Origin: Candidatus Pacearchaeota archaeon
GTDB lineage: Archaea > Nanobdellota > Nanobdellia > Pacearchaeales > GW2011-AR1
Assembly (NCBI GenBank): GCA_038891475.1
Contig: JAWAEI010000001.1
Coordinates: forward strand, 1 to 34,648
DNA: 34,648 nucleotides
Direction: 5' to 3'
The notes beneath the pieces were generated by a model. It saw nothing but the letters and a program-made list of their open reading frames with translations. It searched no databases and had not been told where the DNA came from. Position numbers and translations under genes: made by a program. Shown in pieces: positions 3,189-32,248 of this stretch (position 1 is its first letter; every line of letters starts with the position of its first letter).

Positions 3189-3863
3189 ATGGAGATTCTT
3201 TTCTTAGGGATAGATGAAGCCGGACGAGGTCCAGTTATAGGTCCAATGGTTCTAGCCGGATGTTTAGCTGATTCTAAAACATTAGAGGAATTAAAAAAAA
3301 TTGGTGTAAAGGACAGCAAACAATTAACCCAAAGAAGAAGAGAATTCCTAGAAAAAAGGATAAAAGAAATTGTAAGAAAATTTGAAATTGTGGTTTTAGA
3401 CCCTGAACTAATTGATACAAGAAGTAAGAAATGGGGAAATTTAAATGAATTAGAAGCAGTAATGGCTGCCGAAATAATAAATAAACTTAACGAGGGGAGC
3501 AGAAAAATAAGGGTAATACTAGATTGTCCTTCACCCTCTCCTGATAAATGGAGAAATTTACTTAAAAATTATATCAAAAACAGATCTAACTTAGAAATAG
3601 TCTGTGAACATAAGGCAGATATAAATCATGTAATTGTCTCTGCAGCATCAATTTTGGCAAAATGTCAGAGAGAAAGAGAAATGGAAAAGATAAAAAAGAT
3701 TTATGGAGAGGATGTAGGTTCTGGCTATGGTTCTGATCCAAGAACAAAGAAATTTTTAGAGGAAAATGCGGATAGTTACTCTGACAAAAATTTCTTCCGA
3801 AAAACTTGGGCTAGTTGGAAAAGGGCGAGCTCAAACCTAAAACAAAAGAAACTTTTTGAATAA
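3189..3863 (+). CDS. rnhB: Ribonuclease HII
   Basis: 224 aa. The N-terminus LGIDEAGRGPVIGPMVLAG is the RNase HII catalytic DEAGRG motif, and SILAK and GSGY(G)SD motifs lie downstream. Confidence 0.9.
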   Translation: MEILFLGIDEAGRGPVIGPMVLAGCLADSKTLEELKKIGVKDSKQLTQRRREFLEKRIKEIVRKFEIVVLDPELIDTRSKKWGNLNELEAVMAAEIINKLNEGSRKIRVILDCPSPSPDKWRNLLKNYIKNRSNLEIVCEHKADINHVIVSAASILAKCQREREMEKIKKIYGEDVGSGYGSDPRTKKFLEENADSYSDKNFFRKTWASWKRASSNLKQKKLFE

Positions 3864-11431: not shown

Positions 11432-11723
11432 TTTAACTCCTTTTTTATTTTAATTATATGAAATCTAAAAGATTCCTAAGAAATATATTTATCCCTAATA
11501 CTTCCTACAAACAAAATGCTAAGGGATGAACGTGAGTGTGATCTTGAATAGAGATAAATATACTTCTCTTTTTTAAGAGGGAAAATTGCTTTTTAAGTTT
11601 TTCTATTTTTTAGATAAACTTAACTCCACGTGTGTCTTAAGTATTCTGCAAAATATATGAAAAAGGTTACGAGAATGATAATCCTAAAAACTGTAGTAAC
11701 AAGAAAAAAATTACTAAACCTAA

Positions 11724-12308
11724 CTAAACAACAGATCTCTTCTCAATAGTATTTTTTAATTCACTATACTCTTTAATCTTTCCTAACTTCTCATAAAGAT
11801 GAAGTAATCTTCTTCTAAATTCGTCTCTTTCCTCTGCACTTATTTTCATTTCTAATAATTTTTCATATATCCTTGCTGCCTGCCCTCTTTTCATATTTTT
11901 CTCATAAAACTCGGCCTTGTTCTTATAAAAATCTTTTATATTATTATAAATCTCTTGTCTTTTTGAGTTTGTAGGTGCTTCTCCTATAGCCTTCTTTACA
12001 GCATCGTCTGCCTTTACAAAATCACTTCCTTTTATATACATTTCAGCTTCTCTTACAAAATAATTTATTTTATCAGAAATAGATGTTGAAATTATCGCTG
12101 CGCGATTATAATATTTTGCAGCTTCTATAGGCATTTCGACGCTCTCATAAAGTTCTGCAAGCTTTAGAAAAACAAATCTTTTTATATCTGTATTTAGAGA
12201 TTGTTGCTTAAGAAATCTTGTTAAATAATCTATTTGAACATACTTACCCTTCTTAGATAATTCCTTCTCAATCTCACTTTTAGTCATATCTGGTCTAAGC
12301 ACTTCCAT
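11724..12308 (-). CDS. Hypothetical all-helical (TPR-like) protein
   Basis: 194 aa with repeated A/Y/K-rich helical hairpins (AAKYYNRAA, AEMYIKG, AARIYEKLL). No specific family was recognised. Confidence 0.45.
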   Translation of the reverse strand: MEVLRPDMTKSEIEKELSKKGKYVQIDYLTRFLKQQSLNTDIKRFVFLKLAELYESVEMPIEAAKYYNRAAIISTSISDKINYFVREAEMYIKGSDFVKADDAVKKAIGEAPTNSKRQEIYNNIKDFYKNKAEFYEKNMKRGQAARIYEKLLEMKISAEERDEFRRRLLHLYEKLGKIKEYSELKNTIEKRSVV

Positions 12309-12364
12309 TTTGACTTAATTATAATATAAAATAATAGTTTTTAAGTATTACTCTTTTTAAATAT

Positions 12365-12966
12365 CTAAAACCTAACATGATATTCTCTCAACCTCTCTTC
12401 GAGATTTTTATAATTCTTAAACAAAATTCCTTTAATTCCTAATACCTCTGCACCCTCAATATATGTAGGATTATCATCAATAAAAATAACTTCATTAGGG
12501 GTGGAATCCATTTTCTTCATAGCCCTTATATATATCTCTGCCTCCGGCTAAACCACTCTTTCGAAACAAGAAAGAATAAATGAATCAAAAATATGGTGAT
12601 ATTTTTTATAACAAAAATAATTTAAAACGGGCAATTCTGTATTTGACAAAATTCCTATTTTGTAGCCCCCTTCTTTTAACTTCATACTAAGAGAAAAAAT
12701 GTCTGCCCTTTCTTTTGCAACATTTATGAAAGCATCCGCCCATAATGATTTAGTCTTGGGAGGCTCGGTTTTAAGAATTTTACAAACATTTGCCAGAGGT
12801 CAGATTCAAGTATCTTCCCTCTTTGAAATCTTTCAAAATATAGAAGAAAAGCCCTTTCAAAATCTTCCTCACTTACTCTCAGTTTCATAGCACAGTACTT
12901 AAACAAATCTCTTATAGGATCTTCTATTAAAACTCCGCCACAATCAAACAAGATAGTTCTAATCAT
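12365..12966 (-). pseudogene. HAD-superfamily (subfamily IA-like) hydrolase pseudogene with one frameshift and one in-frame TAG
   Basis: The N-terminal part is ORF 12724-12966 (MIRTILFDCGGVLIED, HAD motif I). It continues only in another frame: ...KTEPPKTKSLWADAFINVAKERADIFSLSMKLKEGGYKIGILSN (motif II)...FDSFILSCFERVV*PEAEIY...VIFIDDNPTYIEGA (motif IV). The TAG at 12548-12550 replaces the conserved motif III Lys (K-P). Confidence 0.8.
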
Positions 12967-12996
12967 TCAAGTTAAAAATATAGTAAGATAATAACT

Positions 12997-14280
12997 TTAT
13001 TTTTTCTTTACTATCTCAGTACAGATACCTGCTCCAACTGTCTGCCCAGCGTCTCTTATAGCAAATCTACTCATGTATGGATTATCTTTTTGAAGTTCAA
13101 TACATAAATTACCTTTTGCCCTAATTCTAACCTTTGCAGAATCGCCATTCTTTAAGAAATCTGGATTTTTTTCTACTACTTCCCCTGTTCTTGGATCAAT
13201 TTTTTCAATTAACTCGACAAATTGACATGGTACTTGGGTTGTATGAACATGAAAAACCGGAGTATATCCTTTAGCCAGTACTGTTGGATGGTTTATGACC
13301 GTTATAGTTGCTATAAACTCCTCAACTACAGGCATGGGCTTTCCAACATCACAAATAACATCTCCTCTTTCAATATCTTTTTTACCAACACCTCTTATAT
13401 TTACACCAACATTATCTCCTGCCCTCGCCTCAGATAGTGCTTCATGATGCATCTCTATAGATCTAACCTCACCTTCGATACCCTTACCCGTTCGTCCAGG
13501 AAGTATTATTACTTTTTGACCAACTTTCATTACACCACATTCGACTTTTCCAACAGGCACCGTCCCAATCCCAGTTATTTCATAAACATCTTGGATAGGC
13601 ATTCTAAGTGGCAAATCCACTGCTAATTGAGGTTCTGGGAACAAATCAAATTGCTCTAAAACAGTTGGCCCTTTATACCAACTCATTTTTTCAGACCTCT
13701 TTGCTACGTTGTCGCCTTTCAAACCAGAACATGCAATGAAATTAGTAGTATCTGGATTTATCCCCACACCTTTTAGCAATTGACTTATCTCTTTTTTTAG
13801 TTGATTAAATCTTTCTTCTTTATAATCAACAGCATCCATCTTATTTATTGCTACTGCAATATTTTTTACACCCATGGTTCTTAATAACCATAAATGCTCG
13901 GTGGTCTGAACTTCAATTCCAGAAGGAGCGGAAATTACTAAAAAAGCGCTATCTGCTTGGCTTGCTCCAGTAATCATATTTTTGACAAAGTCTCTATGAC
14001 CTGGCGCATCAATAATAGTTATCTGATATTTCTGCGTCATTATTTTTCTATAAGCTAAATCTATTGTAACACCCCTTTCTCTCTCTTCCTTAATTTTATC
14101 CATAACATAAGCAAACTCAAACCCAACTTTTCCGTACTTCTCTGCTTCCTGAACTAATCTTTTCATTTCTTGTTCTGATACAATACCTGTATCAAAAAGA
14201 AGCCTTCCAACTATAGTAGATTTTCCAGCATCTACATGACCAACAAACACGACATTCATATTTGGTTTTTCTCTCGCCAT
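12997..14280 (-). CDS. tuf: Translation elongation factor aEF-1 alpha
   Basis: 427 aa with [17 protein letters not shown] and NKMD GTPase motifs. The full-length similarity is to aEF-1alpha/eEF1A. Confidence 0.97.
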
Positions 14281-15048: not shown

Positions 15049-17238
15049 TCATTGATTCTCACTCAATCCTTTCCTCTCTCTTATCCTTCTTATAACTTCT
15101 GGTTGTAAAGTTGGGGGAAGTTTCTCGAATAATTGGTCTACCAAAAAAGAAGCTCCTCTACCCTCTGTTGCACTTCTTAAATCACTTGACCAACCGATCA
15201 TCTCTGCTACTGGAAGTTTTGCCTTTACTTCTGAATCTGACTCTGTTTGTTTTACTTCTAACAACTGCCCTCTTTTACTCCCAATAAGCTTTGTTATCTC
15301 ACCTAAAAACTTGTTTGGAATTTCTATTAAATAGATCTGTAATGGTTCTAAAAGATGTGCACCCGCTTTCTTCATAGCTTCAATAATCGCTTCTCTAACC
15401 GCTGGATAAACCTGTGCTGGGCCCCTATGAATTGCATCTTCATGAAGTTTAGTATCTACAAGAGAAACTTTTACTTTTATACAAGGTTCCCTCGCCAACG
15501 GACCCTGATTCATCACCATTTCAAAAGCATCAGTAACCATTTCTATAACCTCACCTATGTGTACTTCTCCTCGTGTCTCGTCTAAGAATAAATTTCCTTT
15601 GTAAATGTCTCTTATGTTTCTTATCATATCTCCACTCCAACCAAGTTTTGAAAAAGCTTTGAAAATTTCATCACTCTTCTTTTTTATTCTTCCTTCTTTA
15701 ATTTCGCCGCTCTTTATCGCATCATAAACTTTATCCTCTAACGGTTCAACTTTTATATAAAATATATTGTGCTTATTTGGGCTTCTCCCCTCCATGACAG
15801 GCGATTCTTTTGAGATGGTTTCTCTATAAACCACTATAGGTGGAGATGTTTTTACATCAAGTCCTTTTTCTGTTTTTATCCTATTCTCTATTATCTCAAG
15901 ATGAAGTTCTCCCATACCAGAGATAAGACTTTCGCCAGTTTGTTCATTTATCTCAACTCTAATAGAAGGGTCTTCTTTAGAAACCTTTTTTAATATCTCA
16001 ACAAGCTTAGGTAAATCTAACGTATTTTTAACTTCTATGGCTTTTGTTATAACTGGTTCAAAAATATGTTTTAGCTCTTCAAATGGAACTTCTGGTTCAA
16101 GGGTAATCGTTTCACCAGCCTCACCACTAACTCCAGATATAGCAATGACATTACCGCAAGTAATCTCTTCTACTTGTTCTGGTTTTATACCATTGTAAAT
16201 GAATAACTGTTGAATTTTTTGTCTTTTATTAGCCAAATTCAAATAAACCTCTGTTCCTGTTCTTAACGTACCGGAAAAAAGCCTTCCAGCAGAAACCTCT
16301 TTTCCACTTCTAGGTTCTATAACAATTCTCGTTATAACAAAAGCTGGCTTTCCATTTATATCACAATTAAGAAGAGATCTTCCAAAATCAGAATCTAACT
16401 CGCCCTTCCATATTTTTGGTATTCTATATTTTTGCGCCTCTATTGGACTTGGAAGATGTTTAACTACCATATCAAGTAAAACTTCATAAAGAGGGGAATT
16501 TTTCCATACCCATTCCTTTCTCTCCGCTTCGTCCATCTCATAAATTTTAAATATGTCTTTAAATCCAATACCTTTTTTTTGCATATATGGTAAAGATAAA
16601 GCCCAGTTCTCCCTTGCAGAACCAAAAGCAACACTTCCCGCTTTAATATCAACAAGCCATTTTTCTTTAAATTCCGGCTCAGCCATTTTTTCTATTAATT
16701 CATTAAATTCATGAAATATTTTCATAAATCTTTCCTGCATCTGTTCTGGAGTCAACTTTAATTCTTTGATAAGACGATCCACTTTATTAATGAACAGAAC
16801 CGGTTTTACTCTTTCTCTTAAAGCTTGTTTTATTACAGTCTCTGTCTGCGGCATGATTCCTTCAACAGCACACACAAGAACAACAGTCCCATCAATAGCT
16901 CTCATCGCCCTTGTAACATTTCCAGAAAAATCAACATGCCCAGGGGTATCAATTAAATTAATTAAGTACTCTTCTCCTTGATAATTATGAACCATGGAAA
17001 CATTAGCTGCATCTACTGTCATCAGTCTCTCCTGTTCATCTGCATGCTGCCAAGTAGCCATTCCTTTCTCTAAATCTCCAGCTGCTTTGGCAGCCATATA
17101 TCCTGCAGCTGCGAGAAGATTGTCTGTCATCGCGGTTTTTCCGTGATGTATATGTGCCGAGGTAGCTATATTTCTTATATTCTCTCTCTTCTTACTTATC
17201 CTTTTTATCTTCTCTAATTGTGTTTCTCTTTCCGCCAT
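15049..17238 (-). CDS. fusA: Translation elongation factor aEF-2
   Basis: 729 aa with GTPase motifs AHIHHGKT, DTPGHVDF and NKVDR. The diphthamide-site context is HEDAIHRGPAQ. The full-length similarity is to aEF-2/eEF2. Confidence 0.96.
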   Translation of the reverse strand: MAERETQLEKIKRISKKRENIRNIATSAHIHHGKTAMTDNLLAAAGYMAAKAAGDLEKGMATWQHADEQERLMTVDAANVSMVHNYQGEEYLINLIDTPGHVDFSGNVTRAMRAIDGTVVLVCAVEGIMPQTETVIKQALRERVKPVLFINKVDRLIKELKLTPEQMQERFMKIFHEFNELIEKMAEPEFKEKWLVDIKAGSVAFGSARENWALSLPYMQKKGIGFKDIFKIYEMDEAERKEWVWKNSPLYEVLLDMVVKHLPSPIEAQKYRIPKIWKGELDSDFGRSLLNCDINGKPAFVITRIVIEPRSGKEVSAGRLFSGTLRTGTEVYLNLANKRQKIQQLFIYNGIKPEQVEEITCGNVIAISGVSGEAGETITLEPEVPFEELKHIFEPVITKAIEVKNTLDLPKLVEILKKVSKEDPSIRVEINEQTGESLISGMGELHLEIIENRIKTEKGLDVKTSPPIVVYRETISKESPVMEGRSPNKHNIFYIKVEPLEDKVYDAIKSGEIKEGRIKKKSDEIFKAFSKLGWSGDMIRNIRDIYKGNLFLDETRGEVHIGEVIEMVTDAFEMVMNQGPLAREPCIKVKVSLVDTKLHEDAIHRGPAQVYPAVREAIIEAMKKAGAHLLEPLQIYLIEIPNKFLGEITKLIGSKRGQLLEVKQTESDSEVKAKLPVAEMIGWSSDLRSATEGRGASFLVDQLFEKLPPTLQPEVIRRIRERKGLSENQ

Positions 17239-18450: not shown

Positions 18451-18467
18451 TCTTCCCCGGTCTTCAT

Positions 18468-18611
18468 TTAAAATTGGTTTAAGTGTTTTAAAAGCCTTAG
18501 TATTTTTTTAGTATGACTCCAAAACTCTTTATACTGTTTTTTTGAATAAAATTCTTTTAGATTTTCTATTTCCTTTTCAATTTTAGAAGCATTTAATTTT
18601 GCCTCTTCCAT
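18468..18611 (-). CDS. Out-of-frame N-terminal fragment of the same coiled-coil repeat gene
   Basis: MEEAKLNASKIEKEIENLKEFYSKKQYKEFWSHTKK... is a further copy of the repeat module. After a 1-nt shift in the A7 run (plus-strand T7 at 18503-18509) it reads on as ...NTKAFKTLKPILNEDRGRLWSVYSSICEMAKQ, directly into ORF 17341-18450. Confidence 0.6.
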   Translation of the reverse strand: MEEAKLNASKIEKEIENLKEFYSKKQYKEFWSHTKKILRLLKHLNQF

Positions 18612-18829
18612 GACTATATTTAAATAAAAAATATAAAAATATTTAAATTTACCTCTCAAAAATTTGATCCTGTCTTATCTTTAGTATTATTTCTTTTATT
18701 ATATTTCTATATCTTTATTTTCCATCTTTACCAGAGAACCTTTTTAGAAATTTATTAATTTATTAATTGCTGTAGTAATTTTTTATAAATTTATTTAAAA
18801 AATAAATCTCATATTTTAAAGAAATATTG

Positions 18830-19855: not shown

Positions 19856-20386
19856 CTAAACTCTTATGAATTTATTTAATAAGTATCCTATACAAAACGC
19901 TAATAATGCGGCTATACTTCCTATAAGGAAAGTTTGTATTGAAGACTTGTATTTATGTTTCTCTGTAACAACTCCTTTAAACCAACCAACAATTAACAGG
20001 GCAATGCTTGTGAAAACGAAGGATAGCTTAAACTGATTTCTTACAAAAAATGGATCTTTTGTTATCGAAGCTATTAAAAATGAAAGAAGGGGGATTAAAC
20101 CTGAGATAAAGAACGCTATAAAGGTCACTATCGCAGATTTCGTCGCATTTTTTTCATATTTTTTTGAAATCTCATTCTTTGATTTTGTGGAAAAAAAATT
20201 CGAAATAGCCATAGAAAACCCGTCAGCGAACATATTAGCAAAACCTAAAATTAAGATTATTGAAGAATTTAAAGAGGCCCCACTTACTCCTGAAACAACT
20301 GCAAAGGTTGTTATAGCACCATCCATACTACCATAAACAATTTCAGGCAAGTATTTTCTCTCTATTTTTTTTATATTTTCACTCAT
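19856..20386 (-). CDS. VIT1/CCC1-family iron/manganese transporter
   Basis: 176 aa. It has EIVYGSMDGAITTFAVVSGVSGA plus further transmembrane helices, which is typical of the short prokaryotic VIT family. Confidence 0.75.
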   Translation of the reverse strand: MSENIKKIERKYLPEIVYGSMDGAITTFAVVSGVSGASLNSSIILILGFANMFADGFSMAISNFFSTKSKNEISKKYEKNATKSAIVTFIAFFISGLIPLLSFLIASITKDPFFVRNQFKLSFVFTSIALLIVGWFKGVVTEKHKYKSSIQTFLIGSIAALLAFCIGYLLNKFIRV

Positions 20387-20434
20387 CTTCTATATGCCCC
20401 AAAGACCAAACACTATTTAAAATAAAATATATTT

Positions 20435-21184
20435 TTAATAATATTGCCTTATCTTTTTAATACCTTCAGAGATAATTTTACTTACTCTCTCTTTCGTTAT
20501 TCCATATCTTTCACCTATTTCTTTCAGAGATAATTTTGAATCATCTAAACGAGACTGCAAATATAATTTTATAATTTCTTTGTTTTCCTCTTTTATTTTT
20601 AAGAGATTAATTATTCTGAATATATCTTCCTTTAAAAATTTTAAATCTGGAGATATATAGTGGTCACTAGATAACATCTCTAAGAATTTAAGTTTACGTT
20701 GATGCCGGGTTGTTATATCCTCCTCCAAACTGATTTCTACAGTTCCCTCACCATTATTTTTATAAAACACACTTTCTGGAATCCTAACGTTTCTCGAATT
20801 TTCTGCAATATACTTAAGAATTCTATTTCTAATCCACCAAGATGCATAATTCACAAACCGGACATTATAAGAGGAATCAAATCTCTCTATAGAAGTTATC
20901 AGCCCCATTACCCCTTCTGAAAAAAGATCATTAAATTCTATAGTAGGGTTCTTATTAGAAGTCTTATAGAACCCATAGGCGATTTTAAATACATATCTAA
21001 GATTTTTAAGAATGAGTTGATTAAAAGCTTTGTGGTAATTTTCTTCTTCCTCGTCTGTTTTGTTTTCTTTCAGTTTATACTCTAAGAGTATTTCAATGGC
21101 GCGCTTCTCTTCTTCAGGCTTTAGGGGAGAGTATTCTTTAAATATTCTTTCCAAAGTGCCGTTAGTTAAATTAAATTTCTTCAT
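20435..21184 (-). CDS. Bacterial-type sigma-70 family protein (regions 1.2/2.1-2.4 and 4.2 recognisable, region 3 reduced)
   Basis: - Region 2: NQLILKNLRYVFKIAYGFYK...FNDLFSEGVMGLITSIERFDSSYNVRFVNYASWWIRNRILKYIAENSRNVRIP.
- Region 4.2 helix-turn-helix: LSLKEIGERYGITKERVSKIISEGIKKIRQ.
The start is placed at the ATG at 21184 (MKKFNLTNG), which overlaps the thermosome stop by 14 nt. An alternative ATG at 21244 would add a 20-aa K-rich extension. Confidence 0.8.
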   Translation of the reverse strand: MKKFNLTNGTLERIFKEYSPLKPEEEKRAIEILLEYKLKENKTDEEEENYHKAFNQLILKNLRYVFKIAYGFYKTSNKNPTIEFNDLFSEGVMGLITSIERFDSSYNVRFVNYASWWIRNRILKYIAENSRNVRIPESVFYKNNGEGTVEISLEEDITTRHQRKLKFLEMLSSDHYISPDLKFLKEDIFRIINLLKIKEENKEIIKLYLQSRLDDSKLSLKEIGERYGITKERVSKIISEGIKKIRQYY

Positions 21185-22778
21185 CTCTATCTTTTTCGTT
21201 TTTCTTTTCTGTTTTCTCTTTTCCTTTAGCAAGAATAATATCATCTATTCTCAATATCATTATCGCCACTTCAGTAGCAGAGCTTATAGCTTGTGTTTTT
21301 ATTTTTAGAGGTTCAATTATTTTTGATTCAAAAACGTTTTCAATTTTATTAGTTAGAAGGTTCAGTCCGGCATTTCTCTCTCCCGAATCATGCCTAGATT
21401 TTAGTTCAGTTAAAATATCTATAGGATCTAAACCAGCGTTCTCAGCAAGAGTTGCTGGTATAAATTCAAGTGCAGATGCAAATTCCTCAACTGCTAATTG
21501 TTCTCTTCCTGTTAATAACTGCGAGAACTCTCTCAAGCGTTTAGAAACTTCTATTTCTACAGCCCCACCTCCTGGAACAACTAATCCGGACTCAACAACA
21601 CAAGCAACATCACCTAATCCATCTCTTATAGCTCTTTTAACTTCTTCTAATACATGATCACTTCCTCCATATACTAATATGGTAACAGCCTTGGGGTTGT
21701 GACAACCTCTTATATATGTAAAAACATTTTCTCCATTTTTAACCTCTTCAACCACTTCTGCTTTTCCGAGTTCAAACATTGTAAGTTCATTTAGATTACT
21801 TATGATCCTCCCTCCAGTTGCTTTTGAAATTTTTTCTAAATCACTTCTGCTTACCCTTCTACAAACATAAATCTTTTCTTTAGAGAGTAAGTACTGAGCA
21901 AAATCATCTACACCTTTTTGACAAAATAGAACATTTGCCCCGGATTTTTTTATTTTTTCAACCATTCCCTTTATAATCTCTTCTTCTTCAGATATGAAGT
22001 TTTGAAGCTGTTCTGGAGTGGTCACTGAAATCCTTGTTTCTATCTCTGGATTTTTTATTTCTATAGGAAAATCTATAAGAGCTATTCTCGCATCTCTTAT
22101 TCGGGTTGGCATGTCATGAGATACTTTTTCTTTTTCTATAACAATTCCTTTTACCAGTTCAGTATTTTCTATTCCATCCTTTTTTACCCCGATTATTTTT
22201 ATATTCTCTAAATCAACTTTTCCACTTTCTGTTATTTGTTTTATTGCCTCAACAATCACCTTAGAGAGTTTCTCTTTTGCCTCCTCAGCACTTTTCCCAG
22301 TCATAGCTGTCATAGCAATTTTTTTTAAAATTTCTTCATCTTCTGGGGTTACTCTCAAAGAGATTTCTTTTAATATATCTTTAGATCTCTCTGCAGCAAT
22401 ACTATACCCTTTTGCTATAACTGTTGGATGAATTTTTTGGTCTAATAGCTTCTCGGCATTTTCAAGAAGTTTACCAGCCAGCATAACTGCAGTAGTTGTT
22501 CCGTCTCCAACTTCACTTTCTTGAGCTTTTGCTATCTCAACCATCATCTTGGCAGCCGGGTGCTCTATTTCCATTTCCTCTAGAATTGTAACTCCATCAT
22601 TAGTTATGGTAATATCGTTAGTCGGAGAAACGAGCATTTTGTCCATACCTTTTGGACCTAGTGTTGTTTTGATTATATCTGCAATCATTCTTGCGGCAAG
22701 GATATTACTTCTTTGGGCATCTCTTCCGAGGATCCTTTGCACGTCTCCAGGCATAATGTCAACCGGTTTATCTACCAT
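21171..22778 (-). CDS. ths: Thermosome subunit (group II chaperonin)
   Basis: 535 aa with [32 protein letters not shown] and an apical-domain helical protrusion region. A tttaaata box lies about 25 nt upstream of the ATG. Confidence 0.96.
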
Positions 22779-22890
22779 ATAATCTCTCTTTCTTCAAAAT
22801 ATTTAAACATTGTCATGTTAAAAAGAGGGAAAAGGTTTAGGGGCTTTAGATATACTAAAAATTTATAAGTTTCAGATGTCTTTAGTTTGA

Positions 22891-23497: not shown

Positions 23498-23650
23498 ATT
23501 CTTTCTATAAACTAAAAAAGGGATTACCAAAACCTTTATAAACCAAATTCTGATATCTTTTATTATTAATAAGTCATTAAAAAGTGTTTATTGAGAAGTG
23601 TCATAATTTTATCATCACTATCTCTAACGACGAATACCTGCGTAAATAAA

Positions 23651-23896
23651 ATGCATATTTTGCAACCTAAACATATAAAACTCAGCGAAAAAGAGGCTGA
23701 AGAAGTATTGAAAAAATTTAATGTTTCTAAGGCCCAACTCCCAAAGATTCTTTTAAATGACCCTGCTCTCCCAGAAGGGTGTAAAGTAGGAGATATAATA
23801 AAAATAGAAAGAAAAGAACAGGTAGAATCTGAATCTGAAAAATCTCAATCAATTAAGGACTACAAAATATGTTTGTACTATCGTGTTGTAGTTTGA
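23651..23896 (+). CDS. rpoH: DNA-directed RNA polymerase subunit H (Rpo5)
   Basis: MHILQPKHIKLSEKEAEEVLKKFNVSKAQLPKILLNDPALPEGCKVGDIIKIERK...YYRVVV matches archaeal RpoH. The ATG at 23651 is preferred over the TTG at 23591, whose extension is a low-complexity S/L tract. Confidence 0.85.
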   Translation: MHILQPKHIKLSEKEAEEVLKKFNVSKAQLPKILLNDPALPEGCKVGDIIKIERKEQVESESEKSQSIKDYKICLYYRVVV

Positions 23897-23905
23897 TCAA
23901 AGGGG

Positions 23906-26900
23906 ATGTTGATGATGATAAACAAAAATCAACACATATTGATAAAGAGATATTTAGATGAGTACTCTCTTGTAGAATCTAATATAATTTCTTTTAACAA
24001 TTTTATTGAAAAGAGAATGCAAGAAATAGTTCAAGAGATTTCTGACACAATAGAAAATGACGACTTCGAAATAAAACTAGGGAAAGTTGAGGTGGGGAAG
24101 CCTAAGGTAATAGAAGCTGATGGTAGTTCTTCTTTACTCACCCCTACAGAAGCAAAAATGAGAAATCTTACATATGCCGCGCCCGTAACTTTAGAGATCA
24201 GTGTAAAAAAAGAAGATCAATCAGAATCAGAAGTTGTGGAGATAGGAAAAATTCCCATAATGGTTAGGAGTAAGTACTGTAACACGTATGGCATGACAAA
24301 AGAGGAACTTATTAATCATTATTTTGATCCTCTTGATCCTGGAGGTTATTTCATAATAAAAGGTAATGAGAGGATAATGGTTATGGCGGAGGATCTAGCA
24401 GAAAATCAACCCTTTATAGAACCAGATCAGAGCAGAGGGGTTCGATTAAAATTATTTTCTTCTCGAGGTACTTATAGAATTCCAATAGTAATAACAGAAA
24501 ATAAAGAGGGTATCTTTGAGATTTCGTTTAGCAAATTCAAGAACGTACCTTTAATAGTTGTTTTAAAATCCCTTGGAATGACAAAAGAATCTGAAATTCA
24601 AAAATATATAGGTAAAGTAACCGATTCTGTTATAGTAAATCTCTATGAGTTTATTCAGATTGCAACGAAAGAAGATGCATTACTACAAATAGCAGAAAAG
24701 TCGAGTATGCAGGGTACTAAAAAAGAGATTATAAACAAAGTCAAGCAAAGAATAGATTTTTATTTACTTCCACATATTGGCCAGAAAAGAGAGGACAGAA
24801 TAAAGAAGGCTATAACTTTATGCAAACTATTAAAACAATTTTTAATATCTAAGGAAAATCCAAGCGTACAAACTGAGAAAGATCACTATGCAAACAAGAG
24901 GGTTAGACTTTCTGGAGATCTCTTAGCTACGCTATTTAGGGTTAATCTGGGTATTCTTATTAGAGATATACAGTACTCCCTCCAAAAATTATCAAAGAAG
25001 AAAAGAAATATCTCACTCAAAGTTATTGCAAAATCAACCCTTTTCTCAAATAGGATAGAATCTGCAATAGCTACAGGTAACTGGGTCGGTGAAAGAACAG
25101 GAATAACTCAGAACATGGATAAAACAAACTATCTAGCCATAATCTCCCAACTCCAAAGAGTATCAAGCATGCTCCAGAGTGAGCAAGAGAACTTCCCTGC
25201 AAGAACTTTACACCCAACTCAGTATGGAAGATTTTGCCCCATAGAAACTCCTGAAGGAACCGAAATCGGTTTAAGAAAGAACCTCTCAATCTTAGCACAA
25301 GTCTCTACTAGAATTGATTTAGATAAAGAAAATTTATTTAAGATAATGGAAGAGATTGGAATGTCAAGAGAAGAAAATAATGGAGCGGATATTTTCTTAG
25401 ATGGAATTTATATCGGAAATGTTCATGATCCAAAGAATTTTGTGAAAAGGTTTAAAGAAAGGCGTAGAAAGGGAGAGTTACCAATTCAAGCGAATATAAG
25501 ATATCACGAAGATCTTAATATGATTTCTATTTCAACTGAACCAGGAAGAGTGTTGCGGCCTTTAATAATCGTTGAGAACGGGGTTTCTAAATTAAAAAAA
25601 GAGCATCTTCTAAAGATGGAACAAAAAGAAATGGGTTGGAGGGATTTGATAAAAGAGGGAATTATAGAGTATCTTGATGCTTCTGAAGAGGAAGATGCTC
25701 TTGTAGCTCTTTCTGAAGAGGATATAACTCAAGAACACACACATCTTGAAATAGACCCTTGTGATTTATTTGGAGTTGTAACTGCCCTTGTTCCTTACGG
25801 AAATCATGACCAAAGTTCCAGATTAAATAGGGGAAGTAAGACTCAAAAGCAATCTCTTGGCCTATATGCAGCTAACTACTTAGCAAGAATTGATAGTGAT
25901 GTCTCTATATTACAATACCCTCAAAAACCTATTGTTAGAAGTTTTATTTATGACTTTCTTAATCTTTATCCAGCAGGTCAGAACCTTGTTGTAGCTGTAA
26001 TGACATACGAAGGTTATAATATGGAAGACGCCCTTGTTCTTAACAAAGGGAGTGTTGAGAGAGGGATGGGGAGAAGTTTTTATTACAGACCGTACACTAC
26101 TTTAGAAATGAATTATGCTGGAGGTTGGAAAGATGAAATTACAATACCTGGAAAAGATGTTTCTGGATACAGAACTGAAGCTAGTTATAAAAATCTTGAT
26201 GCGGATGGAATAGTAAGTCCTGAAACAGAGTTAGAAGAAGGAGAAGTTATTATTGGAAAGGTTAGTCCTCCAAAATTCTTATCAGAAGCTAAAGAGATTT
26301 CTATAAAGAGTAAAAAGGATTCGAGTGTCGCAGTAAAGCAGGAAGAAAGGGGAATTGTTGATATGGTTGTAATCAGCGAGGATGATGAGGGAAACAAAGT
26401 TGTGAAAGTTAAATTAAGAGATATGAGAATTCCTGAAATAGGTGATAAATTTGCTACATCACATGGTCAGAAAGGTGTTATTGGTTGGATTGCAGATGAA
26501 AATGATATTCCCTTCACTGCAAGTGGTATAAAACCAGATATAATTTTCAATCCTCACGGTCTACCTAGCAGAATGACTGTAGGTTATCTTCTTGAAGTGA
26601 TGGCTGGAAAAGTTGGTGCAGAAAGTGGAGAAATTATAGATGGAACATCTTTTGTTGGACTTGGAATAAAAGAGTTGGAAAATAAACTTGAAGAGTTAGG
26701 GTTTAGATATGATGGAAAGGAAACTATGTATAATGGCATTACAGGTAAAAAGATGAAAGTAAAAATTTTCATAGGAGATATATACTACATGAAATTGAAG
26801 TATATGGTAGCAAACAAAATACACGGAAGAGCCTCAGGAAAGATTGCTTTATTAACGAGACAACCAATAGAGGGGCGTGCAAGAGGTGGTGCACTAAGGC

Positions 26901-27172
26901 TTGGGGAAATGGAACAACAGGCATTAGTAGCTCATGGAGCTTCTTTACTTCTCAAAGAGAGATACGATTCTGATAAAATAATTCTTCCGATATGTTCTCA
27001 TTGTGGTTCAATAGCAATAGATGACACAATAAGAAATAGAAAAATATGTCCTTTGTGTAGTAGTGAAGATGTAGAGTCTGTTGAAGTTTCTTACGCCTTC
27101 AAACTTTTAGTAGATGAACTTCAAAGCCTTCATATTCAAACAACCTTCGGATTAAAAAATAAGTATGAGTAA
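23906..27172 (+). CDS. rpoB: DNA-directed RNA polymerase subunit B (Rpo2), unsplit
   Basis: 1088 aa with hallmark motifs FCPIETPEGTEIGLRKNL, GYNMEDA, GDKFATSHGQKGV, GEMEQQALVAHGA and a C-terminal zinc ribbon CSHCGS...CPLCSS. The start could be any of the ATGs at 23906-23915. Confidence 0.96.
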   Translation: MLMMINKNQHILIKRYLDEYSLVESNIISFNNFIEKRMQEIVQEISDTIENDDFEIKLGKVEVGKPKVIEADGSSSLLTPTEAKMRNLTYAAPVTLEISVKKEDQSESEVVEIGKIPIMVRSKYCNTYGMTKEELINHYFDPLDPGGYFIIKGNERIMVMAEDLAENQPFIEPDQSRGVRLKLFSSRGTYRIPIVITENKEGIFEISFSKFKNVPLIVVLKSLGMTKESEIQKYIGKVTDSVIVNLYEFIQIATKEDALLQIAEKSSMQGTKKEIINKVKQRIDFYLLPHIGQKREDRIKKAITLCKLLKQFLISKENPSVQTEKDHYANKRVRLSGDLLATLFRVNLGILIRDIQYSLQKLSKKKRNISLKVIAKSTLFSNRIESAIATGNWVGERTGITQNMDKTNYLAIISQLQRVSSMLQSEQENFPARTLHPTQYGRFCPIETPEGTEIGLRKNLSILAQVSTRIDLDKENLFKIMEEIGMSREENNGADIFLDGIYIGNVHDPKNFVKRFKERRRKGELPIQANIRYHEDLNMISISTEPGRVLRPLIIVENGVSKLKKEHLLKMEQKEMGWRDLIKEGIIEYLDASEEEDALVALSEEDITQEHTHLEIDPCDLFGVVTALVPYGNHDQSSRLNRGSKTQKQSLGLYAANYLARIDSDVSILQYPQKPIVRSFIYDFLNLYPAGQNLVVAVMTYEGYNMEDALVLNKGSVERGMGRSFYYRPYTTLEMNYAGGWKDEITIPGKDVSGYRTEASYKNLDADGIVSPETELEEGEVIIGKVSPPKFLSEAKEISIKSKKDSSVAVKQEERGIVDMVVISEDDEGNKVVKVKLRDMRIPEIGDKFATSHGQKGVIGWIADENDIPFTASGIKPDIIFNPHGLPSRMTVGYLLEVMAGKVGAESGEIIDGTSFVGLGIKELENKLEELGFRYDGKETMYNGITGKKMKVKIFIGDIYYMKLKYMVANKIHGRASGKIALLTRQPIEGRARGGALRLGEMEQQALVAHGASLLLKERYDSDKIILPICSHCGSIAIDDTIRNRKICPLCSSEDVESVEVSYAFKLLVDELQSLHIQTTFGLKNKYE

Positions 27173-27181
27173 TTTGTTAAA

Positions 27182-30100
27182 ATGATGTATATAAAAAAGT
27201 GCATAAAAGATCTTTCATTTTCATTGCTAAGTCCAGAAAAAATTAAAAAACTATCTGTGGCTAAAATAGTAACACCTGAACTTTATGATGTAGACGGTTA
27301 TCCCGTTGATGGTGGTTTAATGGATCTTAGATTGGGTGTTATCGATCCTGGATTAAGATGCAGAACTTGTGGAGGTAGGATTAAAGAGTGCTTGGGTCAT
27401 CCAGGAAGTATTGAATTAGCTAGGCCGGTTATTCATTTAAAATATGTTCCGATAATAGAACTCTGTCTAAGAGCTTTCTGTAATAATTGTGGAAAATTAA
27501 TGGTTAGTGAAAAAGAATTAATAAAAAGTCCTCCGAGCAAAATATTAAAAAAAGCAAAAGACGCAAAAAAATGTCCTTATTGCAACACCATAGCTGAAAA
27601 AATAAAATTAGAAAAGCCAACAACCTTCTATAGAAAGAAAATAAGGATTTCTCCTATAGAAATAAGAGAAATTTTGTCAAATATCAAGGATAGTGAGCTT
27701 TTAAAAGTTGGAATAAATCCAAAAAGTTTTAGGCCAGAATGGGCCGTTCTAACTTATCTTTTAGTTCCTTCTGTAACGGTTAGACCAAGCATTATACTAG
27801 AAACAGGGGAGAGAAGCGAGGATGATCTCACTCATAAACTCTCAGATATAGTAAGAGCTAATCAGAGGTTATGGGAAAACCTAAATGCTGGTGCTCCTGA
27901 AGTTATAATAGATGACCTATGGGATCTTCTTCAGTTTCATGTAACTACATTTTTTGATAATTCTGTTCCAGGCATTCCTCCGGCAAGGCATCGATCAGGT
28001 CAATTGTTGAAAACTATAACAGAGAGAATTAAGGGAAAAGAAGGAAGAATAAGAAAGAACCTGGCTGGGAAGAGAGTAAATTACTCAGGAAGAACAGTTA
28101 TTTCACCAGATCCATCAATAAAGATAAATGAAGTTGGAATACCGTTTGAGATAGCAAAAATAGTGACAGTTGCAGAAAGTGTTAATGATTTAAATATTGA
28201 TTCTATGAAAAAATTGGTACAAAACGGGTCAGTATATCCCGGCGCTAATTATGTTATAAGACCTGATGGAAAGAGGAAGAAAATAACAGATGATTTAAAA
28301 GAAGAAATAATAAATGAGTTATCACCGGGCTATAAAATTGAAAGACATCTACGTGATGGCGATATTGTACTTTTTAATAGGCATCCAAGCTTACATAAGG
28401 GAAGTTTAATGGCTCATTATGTAAGAGTGCTACCTGGAAGAACCTTTAGGCTTCATCCAGCCGTCGCAACACCTTATAATGCTGACTTTGATGGGGATGA
28501 AATGAATATTCACAGTCCGCAAACAGAAGAAGCCCGCGCAGAGGCAGAGGTTATTTTGGAAGTAAAGAAGAATCTTATAACTCAAAAAAATAATACAAAT
28601 TGGGTTGGTTGTGTTGAAGATGCAATAACCGGTAACTATATGCTGGGATTTGATGAATTCTCCAGAGAAGAAGCAAATCAATTATTGTATAACTCTGGCG
28701 TAGATTATTATTTCTCTAAAAAAACAGTTTCTGGAATAGAATTATTCTCTAAAATAATACCTAAAATAGACTTTTCTAATGACAAAGTAAAAATTAAGGA
28801 TGGGGAGATAGTAAGCGGAGTAATCGACAAAACACTTTTCGGTGATGAGGATGGTATGTTAATAAAAGAGATTGACAGAGAGTACGGGAGAGAAGTCGTT
28901 TTTGATACAATTGAGAAGGCGTTTAGATTAGGAAAGAATTATCTTTCTGAAAGAGGAATTACTATATCTTTAAAAGATTTTGATGTAGAAGAAAGGATAT
29001 TGAATGAAAGTGAAGAGATCATAAAGAAGGCTGAGGGTAAAGCGAATGATATTATCTCATCCTACAACAAAGGAACACTAGAACAAATTCAGGGGAAAAG
29101 TCTTGAAGAATCAAGAGAGATAAAAATTCTAAGAACACTAAATGAAGTAAGAACCCAAATAGGCGAGATAATTAAGAGAGAATTGCCAAAAGACAACCCG
29201 GTAGCTTATATGATACACTCTGGAGGTGGAGGGAGTATCCTTAATATAACTCAAATGGCGTGTTGTGTTGGACAACAAGATTTCGAAGGTAAAAGGGTTA
29301 GCATAGGCTACACGGGAAGAACCTTATCTTTCTTCAAGAAAGGAGATTTATCTCCAAAAGCTAGAGGATTTATAAAAAGTTCATTTATAAAAGGACTAAG
29401 ACCCGATGAATTCTTTTTTCAATCAATGACCGGCAGAGCATCACTAATGGATACTGCATTAAGAACTCCAAAATCAGGCTATTTATATAGAAGACTTGCC
29501 AATGCCATCCAAGATCTAAGGAAGGAATATGACGGAACAATTAGAGACAGTAATAATAATATAATTCAGTATATTTATGGAGACGATGGTTTTGATGTCT
29601 CTAAACTCCATTTAAAGGAGGACAGAGAACTAGAACCGGGTGAAGCCATTGGACTTATAACTGCTCAATCTTTTGGTGAACCCTCGACTCAAATGGTCTT
29701 GAGAACATTCCACTTTGCAGGGGTTACTGAAATGCAGATAACGCAGGGGCTACCAAGACTTATTGAAATATTCGACGCAAGGAAAATTCCTTCATCCCCG
29801 AAAATGGAGATATATTTAAAAAAAGAATATGACAACGAAAAAGACGCCGGTATCTTTGCTGAGAAGATAAGAGAAGTAACACTTCAAGATATAGTTTCAG
29901 AGATAAATGTAGATTTTACTAACAAAAAAATAGAATTAATTATTGATAAGTCGAGAATTAGGGGAAGTGGTCTAACAATAAATAAAGTGGTCGATAAACT
30001 AAATGAAAAAAAATATAATGCAAAGGAGAAATCTGGCATCATCTTGATAAATGTTGGGGAAAAGAGCTATAAGGAAATTTATCAAATAAAAGAAAAAATA

Positions 30101-30667
30101 AAGAAAGAGGTTATTTATGGGATAAAGGGAATAAAACAGGTGTTGGTAGTTAAGAGGGATAATACTTATGTAATTATGACTTTAGGAACAAATCTTAAAA
30201 AAATTTTTGAAATGGAAGAGGTCAATAAGGATAAAACAATCTCTAATGACCTTCACGAAGTCGCGAGTGTACTTGGTATAGAAGCCGCTAGAAATCTTAT
30301 AATAAATGAGATTCAAAGTGTTTTGAATGTTCAGGGATTGAATATTGATAAAAAACATCTAAAACTTGTTGCAGATGCTATGACTAACACTGGAGAAGTT
30401 AGAGGAGTTACTAGAATTGGAATAATTGCACAGAAATCTTCAATACTTGCAAGAGCTACTTTTGAAACACCAATAAAACAGTTTATCAACTCAACGCTTA
30501 AAGGAAGTAAAGATAGATTATTAAGTGTTATAGAAAATATTATCCTAAATCAACCAGTCCCGGTAGGAACCGGACTTCCTGGGCTTCTTGTTAAAGTTGT
30601 TGGGCCACTAACTATAGAAGAAATGCGTGAGAAACGAGTAGAGAAACTCGAAAGTGAAGAAGAGTAA
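27182..30667 (+). CDS. rpoA: DNA-directed RNA polymerase subunit A (Rpo1), with the A' and A'' parts fused in one ORF
   Basis: 1161 aa.
- A' features: zinc motifs CRTCGG...GHPG and CNNCG...CPYC, active site YNADFDGDEMNIH, bridge helix GRASLMDTALRTPKSGYLYRRL.
- These are followed without a stop by the A'' trigger-loop region EPGEAIGLITAQSFGEPSTQMVLRTFHFAGV...GLPRLIEIFDARK.
The junction is at about 29600-29640. Confidence 0.93.
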   Translation: MMYIKKCIKDLSFSLLSPEKIKKLSVAKIVTPELYDVDGYPVDGGLMDLRLGVIDPGLRCRTCGGRIKECLGHPGSIELARPVIHLKYVPIIELCLRAFCNNCGKLMVSEKELIKSPPSKILKKAKDAKKCPYCNTIAEKIKLEKPTTFYRKKIRISPIEIREILSNIKDSELLKVGINPKSFRPEWAVLTYLLVPSVTVRPSIILETGERSEDDLTHKLSDIVRANQRLWENLNAGAPEVIIDDLWDLLQFHVTTFFDNSVPGIPPARHRSGQLLKTITERIKGKEGRIRKNLAGKRVNYSGRTVISPDPSIKINEVGIPFEIAKIVTVAESVNDLNIDSMKKLVQNGSVYPGANYVIRPDGKRKKITDDLKEEIINELSPGYKIERHLRDGDIVLFNRHPSLHKGSLMAHYVRVLPGRTFRLHPAVATPYNADFDGDEMNIHSPQTEEARAEAEVILEVKKNLITQKNNTNWVGCVEDAITGNYMLGFDEFSREEANQLLYNSGVDYYFSKKTVSGIELFSKIIPKIDFSNDKVKIKDGEIVSGVIDKTLFGDEDGMLIKEIDREYGREVVFDTIEKAFRLGKNYLSERGITISLKDFDVEERILNESEEIIKKAEGKANDIISSYNKGTLEQIQGKSLEESREIKILRTLNEVRTQIGEIIKRELPKDNPVAYMIHSGGGGSILNITQMACCVGQQDFEGKRVSIGYTGRTLSFFKKGDLSPKARGFIKSSFIKGLRPDEFFFQSMTGRASLMDTALRTPKSGYLYRRLANAIQDLRKEYDGTIRDSNNNIIQYIYGDDGFDVSKLHLKEDRELEPGEAIGLITAQSFGEPSTQMVLRTFHFAGVTEMQITQGLPRLIEIFDARKIPSSPKMEIYLKKEYDNEKDAGIFAEKIREVTLQDIVSEINVDFTNKKIELIIDKSRIRGSGLTINKVVDKLNEKKYNAKEKSGIILINVGEKSYKEIYQIKEKIKKEVIYGIKGIKQVLVVKRDNTYVIMTLGTNLKKIFEMEEVNKDKTISNDLHEVASVLGIEAARNLIINEIQSVLNVQGLNIDKKHLKLVADAMTNTGEVRGVTRIGIIAQKSSILARATFETPIKQFINSTLKGSKDRLLSVIENIILNQPVPVGTGLPGLLVKVVGPLTIEEMREKRVEKLESEEE

Positions 30668-31186: not shown

Positions 31187-31609
31187 ATGGGATTAAAAAA
31201 TGCCTTGAAATTGAAGAAAAATAGAAAAAAATTTAGGTGGAGTGATTTTAAGTATAAGTCAAGAGTCTTAAAGTTACGAGAGAAATCTGATCCATTAGGA
31301 AGAGCGCATCAAGCTAAGGGGATAGTTCTTCAAAAAGTTCAAAAAGAGGCAAAACAGCCTAATTCTGCTATGAGAAAGTGTTGTAAAGTTCAGTTAAAGA
31401 AAAGTGGTAAAGTAGTCACAGCATTTATTCCTGGCAATCTTGCTCAAAAATTTATCGATGAACATGATGAAGTTCTTATCCAGAGAATTGGGGGTAAACA
31501 GGGGAGAACTAAGGGAGATATTCCTGGTGTCAGATTTGAAGTAATTCAAGTTAATGACCAACCCCTTCATCGTCTTGTAAAGGGATTAATAGAGAAAGGA
31601 AGGAGATAA
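31187..31609 (+). CDS. rps12: 30S ribosomal protein S12 (uS12)
   Basis: 140 aa. [15 protein letters not shown]...[10 protein letters not shown]...DEVLI...[18 protein letters not shown] is a typical archaeal uS12. Confidence 0.95.
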
Positions 31610-31621
31610 TTATAGTGTAGA

Positions 31622-32248
31622 ATGGGAGAAAAAAAAATAGAACAAATTAAAAACCTGAAATTTAAACTTTTTGATTTATATGAAACTGAGAATATAATAG
31701 TTAATGATATAGGGCTGAGAAGCGTCATAAATTTAAACCCAAAACTTATACCAAAAAGTTATGGAAGGAATGTAGCAAAATTTGGGCAGACCAGAGTTAA
31801 CATAGTTGAAAGATTGATTAATAGGATTTGTGTCGCCGGCCATAGAGGTAAAAAACATAAAATCATTGTCGGCCATTCAACAGGAAAATTTTCAAAAATT
31901 GCAAAAAAAGTTATTGAAGCATTTAAAATAATAGAAAAAAGAAAGGGAAAAAACCCTGTAGAAGTGTTTGTTAGAGCAATAGAGAATTCTGCGCCAAGAG
32001 ATGAAATTACTACAATAGAGTATGGTGGAGCAAGGTATCCTGTCGCAGTAGATGTCTCGCCCCTAAGGCGAGTTAATTTAGCAATTAAGCACATAGTTCA
32101 CGGTGCATTTGATAGGTCGTTTGGAAAAAAGAAAAAAATAGAGGAGGCTCTTGCAGAAGAGATAATTCTCGCATCAGAAGGAAATCAAGAAAGTTTCGCA
32201 ATAAGAAAAAAAATAGAGTTAGAAAAACAAGCCGATAGTGCAAGATAA
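31622..32248 (+). CDS. rps7: 30S ribosomal protein S7 (uS7)
   Basis: 208 aa. VERLINRI...GKK...AFKIIE...NPVEVFVRAIENSAPRDE...GGARYPVAVDVSPLRRVNLA is a typical archaeal uS7. Confidence 0.93.
   Translation: MGEKKIEQIKNLKFKLFDLYETENIIVNDIGLRSVINLNPKLIPKSYGRNVAKFGQTRVNIVERLINRICVAGHRGKKHKIIVGHSTGKFSKIAKKVIEAFKIIEKRKGKNPVEVFVRAIENSAPRDEITTIEYGGARYPVAVDVSPLRRVNLAIKHIVHGAFDRSFGKKKKIEEALAEEIILASEGNQESFAIRKKIELEKQADSAR

Follow-up and report, generated by a model that had tools for sequence, protein, structure and literature searches.

The sigma gene and its identity

The stretch of DNA analysed here, referred to as the window, covers positions 1 to 34,648 of contig JAWAEI010000001.1 (assembly GCA_038891475.1) of a Candidatus Pacearchaeota archaeon. 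On its minus strand a thermosome (group II chaperonin) gene is followed by a gene that, on the evidence of hidden Markov models, structure and individual residues, encodes a genuine sigma-70 family protein (the window sigma), and then by a gene of the VIT1 family. Sigma factors on one side and TBP, TFB and TFE on the other represent the textbook divide between bacterial and archaeal transcription initiation, and the stable presence of a sigma gene in an archaeal chromosome raises the question of whether both initiation systems can be mixed.

The minus-strand open reading frame (ORF) 20435..21244, reported with its peptides in an earlier model-made reading of the sequence (the first-pass annotation), is present and yields 269 amino acids when counted from its first ATG, at 21244. 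The start of the gene is most likely ATG 21184 in preference to ATG 21244. It is the start given in GenBank, where a protein identical to the 249-residue form (P0001) is named 'MAG: sigma-70 family RNA polymerase sigma factor [Candidatus Pacearchaeota archaeon]'. The first-pass annotation had recognised a bacterial-type sigma-70 homologue, and the matches obtained with Pfam, NCBIfam, the PDB and Foldseek support this. Of the Pfam domains that it had proposed to look for, Sigma70_r2 (PF04542; 9e-14, 51.5 bits against a cut-off of 24, residues 77-151 of the 269-residue ORF) and Sigma70_r4 (PF04545; 3.6e-10, 39.6 bits against 24.1) are found above their cut-offs, and Sigma70_r3 gives no match in the Pfam search of the ORF, nor do the r1 and Sigma70_r1_2 models. 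The generic sigma-70 model TIGR02937 spans residues 73-268 (1.7e-28, 99.4 bits against a cut-off of 42.9), and the RpoD, RpoS, RpoH and FliA models of NCBIfam rank after it, all far under their own cut-offs. A phmmer search of PDB sequences matches 73 sigma sequences (best 5e-19), led by SigA, RpoD and RpoS through region 2. The AlphaFold2 (AF2) model has a predicted local distance difference test score (pLDDT) of 81.5 overall, and above 90 in the sigma2 and sigma4 domains. When it is compared with the PDB by Foldseek, the 50 top matches listed are all sigma chains (SigA, SigB, sigmaS) in RNA polymerase holoenzyme or initiation complexes, with E-values down to 1.4e-8 and a probability of 1.00; the template modelling (TM) score is only ~0.4 because the sigma domains are arranged differently off the polymerase.

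Domain layout and residue changes

The window sigma, in the numbering of the 249-residue form, was mapped residue by residue through its alignment with the fetched product of E. coli rpoD. Its layout comprises region 1.2, sigma2, a short 3.2-like linker and sigma4, without region 1.1 and without sigma3. The N-terminal stretch corresponds in the alignment to LEKYLQEIG...EEE, a segment of short RpoD/SigA proteins from Bacteroidota and Ignavibacteriota, and its two AF2 helices (residues 9-17 and 23-38) have pLDDT values of 84-96. A 13-residue insert follows region 1.2, and the loop between regions 2.1 and 2.2 is longer than in RpoD/SigA.

The sigma2 domain contains DLFSEGVMGL in region 2.2 and FVNYASWWIR in regions 2.3/2.4. 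The first-pass annotation had described a nearly position-for-position alignment to regions 2.1-2.4 of RpoD with retention of the Y-x-x-W-W melting residues, and both statements are borne out: residues 84-136 align without gaps to RpoD 401-453, with 22 identities out of 53, and RpoD Y430, W433 and W434 are conserved as Y113, W116 and W117. Other RpoD residues kept are N383, D403, L404, E407, G408, G411, L412, F419, F427, R436, R448, R451 and P453. The changes in region 2 are Q406S, N409V, R423Y, Y425V, Q437N and T440L, the last two being located in region 2.4.

Opposite RpoD ~474-510 (regions 3.0-3.1) the alignment shows a gap of ~37-45 columns, and it is through this deletion that the window sigma has no sigma3 domain. 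The AF2 model gives residues 143-178 pLDDT values below 50 and contains no three-helix domain there, and the stretch ISLEED...KLKFLE aligns to region 3.2. The C-terminus corresponds to the region 4.2 helix-turn-helix, as had been supposed, within a sigma4 domain of four AF2 helices (residues 179-194, 199-213, 220-227 and 231-248). In region 4.2, T583, E585 and R586 are kept, and R584K, R588S, Q589K and K593E are altered. The resulting recognition helix, TKERVSKI, occurs in no other of the 275 sigma sequences gathered; in nearly all of these the helix ends in ..RQ[IL], typically as T[RK]ER[IV]RQI. The protein is an incomplete sigma, with sigma3 missing and the -35 helix altered.

Archaeal neighbourhood and expression signals

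Domain searches find the archaeal neighbours that the first-pass annotation had listed (rpoH, rpoB and rpoA, the genes of aEF-2, aEF-1alpha and the thermosome, and a DnaG-like Toprim gene; Table 1), and the only RNA polymerase subunits on the contig are archaeal. The window RpoA is one ORF of 1161 amino acids holding Rpb1 domains 1-5; archaeal RpoA is usually split into A' and A'' genes. The composition of the sigma gene, with a GC content of 0.299 and a GC content at third codon positions (GC3) of 0.276, matches that of its neighbours, in agreement with the same annotation. The intron-containing tRNAs that it had also mentioned are not found, ARAGORN giving 0 tRNAs in the window and Rfam 0 matches of any family at E <= 0.1.

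The 14-nt overlap with the thermosome gene that had been described is correct for ATG 21184; for ATG 21244 it would be 74 nt. Such an overlap suggests co-transcription and possibly coupled translation. By analogy with archaeal promoter architecture (PMC7289017), the TATA-box-like element upstream of the thermosome gene is probably the promoter of a thermosome-sigma transcript, and a second, putative promoter element lies within the 48-nt spacer between the sigma and VIT1 genes. The window sigma gene lacks a separate TATA-like box and its start lies within the thermosome gene, so read-through transcription is likely. In the syntenic contig L003, described below, a TATA-like element, TTTATAAA, is located roughly 25 nt upstream of the sigma ATG. 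Sites resembling canonical sigma-70 promoters show no enrichment around the locus, where 18 were counted and shuffles gave 19.9 +/- 3.4.

A bacterial-type gene in such surroundings could be the product of an assembly or binning artefact joining bacterial DNA to an archaeal contig. The domain mismatch itself is what speaks for this explanation, and nothing further does. Against it stand the coding overlap with the thermosome gene, the shared GC and GC3, the archaeal genes on either side and an identical gene order in the independent NCBI assembly GCA_053534355.1, and mis-binning has been ruled out for the DPANN sigma-70 family (PMC8204110). The artefact is effectively refuted, and the overlap, composition and synteny sustain the earlier opinion that the gene is not a chimeric join.

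Table 1. Features of the window and of the loci compared with it (window positions unless a locus is named)
Feature	Position	Strand	Remarks
S10	1028-1336		
ThyX	1396-2754		
RNase HII	3189-3863		
SMC	3905-6775		
Toprim (DnaG-like) protein	10268-11431		
aEF-1alpha	12997-14280		
aEF-2	15049-17238		
VIT1-family (iron/manganese transporter-like)	19856..20386	(-)	Pfam VIT1 1.2e-35; directly downstream of sigma
TTTTAAATA, TATA-like element	20414..20422	(-)	3' end 28 nt upstream of VIT1 ATG
Sigma-70 family coding sequence	20435..21184	(-)	249 aa + stop; start ATG 21184 (MKKFNL...); longest ORF begins 21244
Sigma4 domain (regions 4.1-4.2), residues ~179-248	20441..20650	(-)	helix-turn-helix LSLKEIGERYGITKERVSKI; Pfam, AF2
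Short linker, residues 137-178, region 3.2 remnant	20651..20776	(-)	sigma3 (regions 3.0-3.1) deleted
Sigma2 domain (regions 2.1-2.4), residues ~44-136	20777..21055	(-)	Pfam, PDB phmmer, RpoD map, pLDDT >90
Region 1.2-like N-terminal helices, residues ~8-40	21065..21163	(-)	alignment and AF2
14-nt overlap, sigma start / thermosome stop (TAA 21171-21173)	21171..21184	(-)	read from sequence
Thermosome (group II chaperonin)	21171-22778	(-)	Pfam Cpn60_TCP1 2.4e-179; directly upstream of sigma, same strand
TTTAAATA, archaeal TATA-box-like element	22800..22807	(-)	3' end 22 nt upstream of thermosome ATG; probable promoter
Rpo5/H	23591-23896		
RpoB	23906-27172		
RpoA, single fused ORF	27182-30667	(+)	
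S12	31187-31609		
S7	31622-32248		
Slot content, L013			169-aa ORF, no assigned family
Slot content, L014			small ORF, then thioredoxin-reductase-like gene
Slot content, L015 and L016			ORFs of no assigned family
Slot content, L017-L019	e.g. L017 2339-2972		VapBC pair, then reductase
Slot content, L020	L020 5612-6496		294-aa ORF abutting thermosome, not a sigma
ORF pair	L003 4553-6589	(-)	
ORF pair	L013 502-2489	(-)	
ORF pair	L014 379-2371	(-)	
ORF pair	L015 5782-7753	(+)	

Relatives, synteny and rate of change

When 1.84 billion representative proteins were scanned exhaustively, 49,381 sigma-like matches were obtained, among which P0011 is the sole standout and the best non-self match to the window sigma (E 5.8e-30). 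The next ranks are occupied by P0012, P0013 and P0015 (~1e-26 to 1e-21), and the remainder form a diffuse cloud at ~1e-20. In these three proteins region 2, or the whole protein, is doubled in tandem, which inflates their scores; they look like assembly or gene-calling chimeras.

P0011 is encoded on L003, a 40.7-kb contig of GCA_053534355.1, where the gene order is that of the window: a CBS protein gene on the opposite strand, the thermosome gene, the sigma gene and VIT1. Between the two loci the thermosomes are 81% identical, the VIT1 proteins 74% and the CBS proteins 64%, against 30% for the sigma proteins; the sigma gene evolves much faster than its neighbours. Just downstream of VIT1, L003 carries a 99-residue RHS-repeat fragment (11493-11792) that has no counterpart in the window. 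The AF2 model of P0011 (pLDDT 89.6) contains a confident three-helix sigma3 domain (residues 134-153, 157-164 and 168-178), and its recognition helix is the canonical TRERIRQI; therefore the window copy is the more derived of the two. Both proteins have the lengthened 2.1-2.2 loop and the insert after region 1.2, and they have in common two rare motifs, AYG[FY]Y (2 of the 275 sequences) and SRN.RIP (3 of the 275).

Beyond this pair, relatives are scarce. Searching genome contigs with the window sigma alone returned two Clostridia sigma genes and nothing else; a metagenome-contig search with the two-sequence alignment of the window sigma and P0011 returned 554 pattern matches and 0 relatives; and a metagenome search with VIT1 found, besides distant VIT1 genes, two that are close but partial, and no sigma gene adjoins any of them. 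As for the contexts of other low-GC sigma matches, P0251, P0256 and P0039 are phage-like, P0008 lies in a bacterial island beside an Mrr nuclease, and only P0148 is archaeal. P0148, a third archaeal sigma, is adjoined by archaeal-type Rad50 and Mre11 and keeps a weak sigma3. A phylogeny had been proposed as a way to find the donor clade, but the neighbour-joining tree with bootstraps did not resolve it. In this tree P0011 is paired with P0148, and the window sigma is drawn to the FliA group in 67 of 100 bootstraps, most likely by a long-branch or gap effect.

Constraint was examined at the 29 alignment columns with at least 85% conservation in the homologues. The consensus residue is present at 83% of these in the window sigma and at 86% in P0011, and the identities between both proteins cluster in conserved columns (Mann-Whitney p = 5e-9). 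That both ORFs are intact, that the folds are confident and that signature residues are retained speaks against a dead gene, while the fast change, the loss of sigma3 and the altered -35 helix point to relaxed or shifted constraint. These data bear on the possibility that the gene came by horizontal transfer and is now a decaying relic, its present function slight or absent and its reading frame held open only by chance or weak selection. Such decay would fit the 30% identity to the positional orthologue against 64-81% for the neighbours, the loss of an entire domain and of two almost universal residues of the -35 helix, R588 and Q589, the patchy presence among relatives, and the single homologue that rises above the generic sigma cloud of the scan. 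However, the ORFs have stayed intact in both lineages despite their divergence, 83-86% of the near-invariant positions are kept, sigma2 and sigma4 are folded confidently by AF2, the sigma start is tightly packed into the thermosome 3' end, and a neutral sequence so divergent would have gained stops in a genome of 32% GC. A relic is thus unlikely, although not strikingly so.

A variable slot beside the thermosome gene

The closest thermosomes, 74-76% identical to that of the window, are encoded on Pacearchaeota and Nanoarchaeota contigs, and the CBS/thermosome pair is conserved in five of these thermosome relatives. None of the five relatives checked (loci L013-L020) has a sigma gene downstream of the thermosome gene. 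The position between the thermosome gene and a thioredoxin-reductase-like gene is a slot of variable content (Table 1). VIT1 does not occur in the slot of L013-L020, and VIT1 and sigma are found together only in the window and L003. When run over all ORFs of the compared loci, the sigma profile matches only the window, L003 and L010, so that sigma and VIT1 are an accessory insert present, so far, in two lineages only.

The sigma gene could accordingly be part of a mobile element, provirus or defence island inserted by the thermosome gene. The slot is indeed variable and holds VapBC toxin-antitoxin pairs in relatives, the RHS fragment lies just downstream in L003, PADLOC matches the protein to the defence-associated sigma MzaA (5e-19), and a similar sigma is located beside an Mrr nuclease in bacterial contigs. 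Nevertheless, neither an integrase, a capsid or a terminase nor repeat boundaries were detected, sigma and VIT1 are the only cargo common to the window and L003, the MzaA match is limited to the generic sigma domain, and the best matches in the phage database, 25-36% identical, are no better than bacterial ones. Hence an origin of this kind is very unlikely.

Affinities with known sigma families

Sigma-70 genes have been described in such genomes before. They recur in DPANN archaea, especially Woesearchaeota, as family fam00359 (Castelle et al. 2021, Front Microbiol; PMC8204110), where mis-binning was excluded, no anti-sigma factors were found, TBP, TFB and TFE are present and the mechanism was called unclear. 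Moreover, a study of 2025 describes rpoS-like genes in viruses of DPANN archaea and in a prophage (PMC12647753). Reviews still describe archaeal initiation as sigma-free (PMC7289017, PMC12993045), and a search of the available literature for sigma factors with Pacearchaeota or Woesearchaeota found no functional study. The possible novelty of the family in these archaea, which the first-pass annotation had left to be judged, therefore does not hold: such genes are already published, the protein is already annotated as sigma-70 in GenBank, and the window copy is a divergent further example. Like fam00359, it is a bacterial-type sigma-70 among archaeal genes of a DPANN genome, without an anti-sigma factor nearby and with contamination excluded through linked archaeal genes. 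A sigma-70 annotated protein and DPANN markers occur together on the contig, a likeness established by description. The published account stresses Woesearchaeota, whereas the window copy belongs to Pacearchaeota, lacks sigma3, has a changed -35 helix and is linked to a thermosome gene.

Among bacterial proteins, the best named matches of the two-sequence profile are the short (~287 aa) RpoD/SigA proteins of Bacteroidota and Ignavibacteriota, with E about 1e-30 to 1e-36; they share region 1.2, the 2.1-2.4 motifs and the region 4.2 helix-turn-helix with the window sigma. It differs from bacterial group 1-3 sigmas by the absence of sigma3, the 13-residue insert and the longer 2.1-2.2 loop. Assignment to group 1 (primary RpoD/SigA) was rejected, there being no region 1.1, a deleted sigma3 and 88.8 bits with the best RpoD-type model against a cut-off of 384.5. 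FliA/WhiG (61 bits against 189.6) and sigma-32 (RpoH, 75.9 bits against 323) were likewise discarded. MzaA, a protein of ~700 aa with an N-terminal extension, was rejected as well, the match being confined to its sigma domain (model positions 426-512 of 683; 83 bits against 800) and partner Mza genes being absent.

The sequence TTRHQRKLKFL (20681-20713 on the minus strand, residues 158-168) resembles the RpoH box (ATTKAQRKLFFNL), which in sigma-32 comes straight after region 2.4, and is found beside a chaperonin gene. Derivation of the protein from RpoH was nevertheless rejected: the motif lies 25 residues after RIP (about 8 for the RpoH box), aligns to region 3.2 and is missing in P0011. The likeness is probably a coincidence.

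With group 4, or extracytoplasmic function (ECF), sigmas the protein shares the two-domain sigma2-sigma4 layout and the short linker, but it keeps region 1.2 and group-1-like residues in regions 2.3/2.4 (Y-x-x-W-W). Since P0011 still has sigma3, the two-domain state represents a recent secondary loss and not ECF ancestry. Phage sigmas (PHROG 351; phrog_351 matches the window sigma at 2e-34) and the rpoS-like genes of DPANN viruses (PMC12647753) are comparable in being sigmas of low GC outside bacterial chromosomes; they differ in that the window locus has no viral context and in the 25-36% identity to the phage copies. No close phage homologue that could represent a donor was found in the phage database search.

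Sigmas encoded by phages act on bacterial RNA polymerase, and the window sigma might do the same outside the archaeon: delivered to a bacterial partner or host, or expressed in it, it would redirect the transcription of that cell. The bacterial-type core-binding and melting residues are kept, many similar low-GC sigmas are phage-borne (L004, L006, L012) with the PHROG match already given, and DPANN viruses carry rpoS-like genes. On the other hand, the N-terminus, as read from the sequence, has no hydrophobic signal-like segment, there are no secretion or transfer genes nearby, and sigma3 and the -35 readout are degraded; in addition, cultivated DPANN have archaea as their known hosts (PMC8204110). 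Action on a bacterial enzyme is therefore highly improbable.

Possible interaction with the archaeal RNA polymerase

TFE binds the clamp coiled-coil of the archaeal polymerase, at a site homologous to the binding site of sigma2. The window sigma could then be an initiation or initiation-modulating factor for the archaeal enzyme, its sigma2 domain docked on the clamp coiled-coil of the fused RpoA. It would share the TFE/Spt5 site and would aid or redirect opening at some genes, perhaps of bacterial origin. The D-L-x-x-E-G-x-x-G-L core-binding helix and Y113, W116 and W117 have been kept after extreme divergence, and so has a stretch resembling region 3.2. Along its clamp coiled-coil the window RpoA shows no gaps against E. 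coli beta' 255-314, and a few kb separate the sigma gene from the rpoH-rpoB-rpoA cluster. The contact residues tell otherwise: beta' R275, E295 and A302, which we take to be critical for sigma70 binding, align to A226, L246 and H253 of the window RpoA. With these residues different, canonical clamp docking, one of the options raised by the first-pass annotation, is not supported. In the window sigma itself, Q406 and N409 are replaced by S and V. Furthermore, no established archaeal counterpart is known for the beta flap-tip helix, the holder of sigma4, and the absence of the sigma gene at this locus in close Pacearchaeota relatives excludes it as a general factor. A role of this type is on these grounds unlikely. 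TFB and TFE resemble a sigma factor in carrying out promoter recognition and DNA opening in archaea (PMC7289017), but they are universal factors without kinship to it in sequence or fold, whereas the window sigma is a sporadic accessory gene.

A more specific proposal, that a bacterial sigma has been re-wired to the archaeal (RNA polymerase II-like) enzyme with sigma2 on the RpoA clamp, in place of or beside TFE, must be considered quite unlikely. The protein would open or select the promoters of an accessory gene set. The proposal stays alive because 70% divergence has left the core-binding helix, the melting aromatics and the remnant of region 3.2 in place, and if true it would represent the first cross-domain hybrid initiation system.

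A proposed accessory DNA-binding regulator

On balance, the window sigma is somewhat better explained as a horizontally acquired accessory gene encoding a lineage-specific, putative DNA-binding regulator expressed from archaeal promoters. Bacterial core polymerases are not known from such archaea, which makes the role of an accessory DNA-binding regulator the most likely one. The ancestor of the window and L003 lineages would have taken up the gene horizontally from a bacterium or a bacterial virus. The archaeal machinery would transcribe it, in the window by reading through from the thermosome TATA-box promoter and in L003 from the TATA-like box of the sigma gene itself. The protein would bind DNA via the sigma4 helix-turn-helix and the DNA-binding surfaces of sigma2, with a specificity that may have drifted off the canonical -35 and -10 elements.

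Several points weigh against this explanation. The distance tree gives the window sigma and P0011 as sisters in only 5 of 100 bootstraps, so that their orthology rests on synteny, the two rare motifs and the rank of best match. The conservation test is partly circular, since the homologues were chosen for their similarity to these same two proteins. A plain DNA-binding repressor needs neither strand-separating aromatics nor a core-binding helix, and yet both are kept, which hints at a polymerase-linked role. Finally, the examination covered the contig, and the absence of a bacterial-type core polymerase is taken from what is known of DPANN genomes and from PMC8204110.

By itself the window sigma leaves existing knowledge unchanged. 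The detail added to the published DPANN observation is a variable slot on the chaperonin side, occupied by sigma in at least two lineages, and a fast change in which signature residues are kept, one copy, that of the window, having shed sigma3 and changed its -35 reading head. The orthologue pair, three-domain in P0011 and two-domain in the window, offers a ready contrast for studying binding to archaeal versus bacterial polymerase.

Other observations on the window and the compared contigs

The gene-free gaps of the window include 12309-12996 and 18451-18829. A pair of ORFs of ~167 and ~465-480 aa, without Pfam match, is found near the thermosome gene in four Pacearchaeota/Nanoarchaeota contigs (Table 1). 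L013, a 147-kb contig (Ga0369713_1000036), carries the NCBI label 'Patescibacteria group bacterium'; its thermosome (P0297) is 76% identical to that of the window and it has the CBS/thermosome arrangement, so the contig is probably archaeal despite its bacterial label. In L007 and L008 (4508-6954), which represent two different bacterial contexts, a 317-aa sigma2-sigma4 protein is encoded directly after an Mrr-type restriction nuclease, and the two genes possibly constitute a two-gene defence module.

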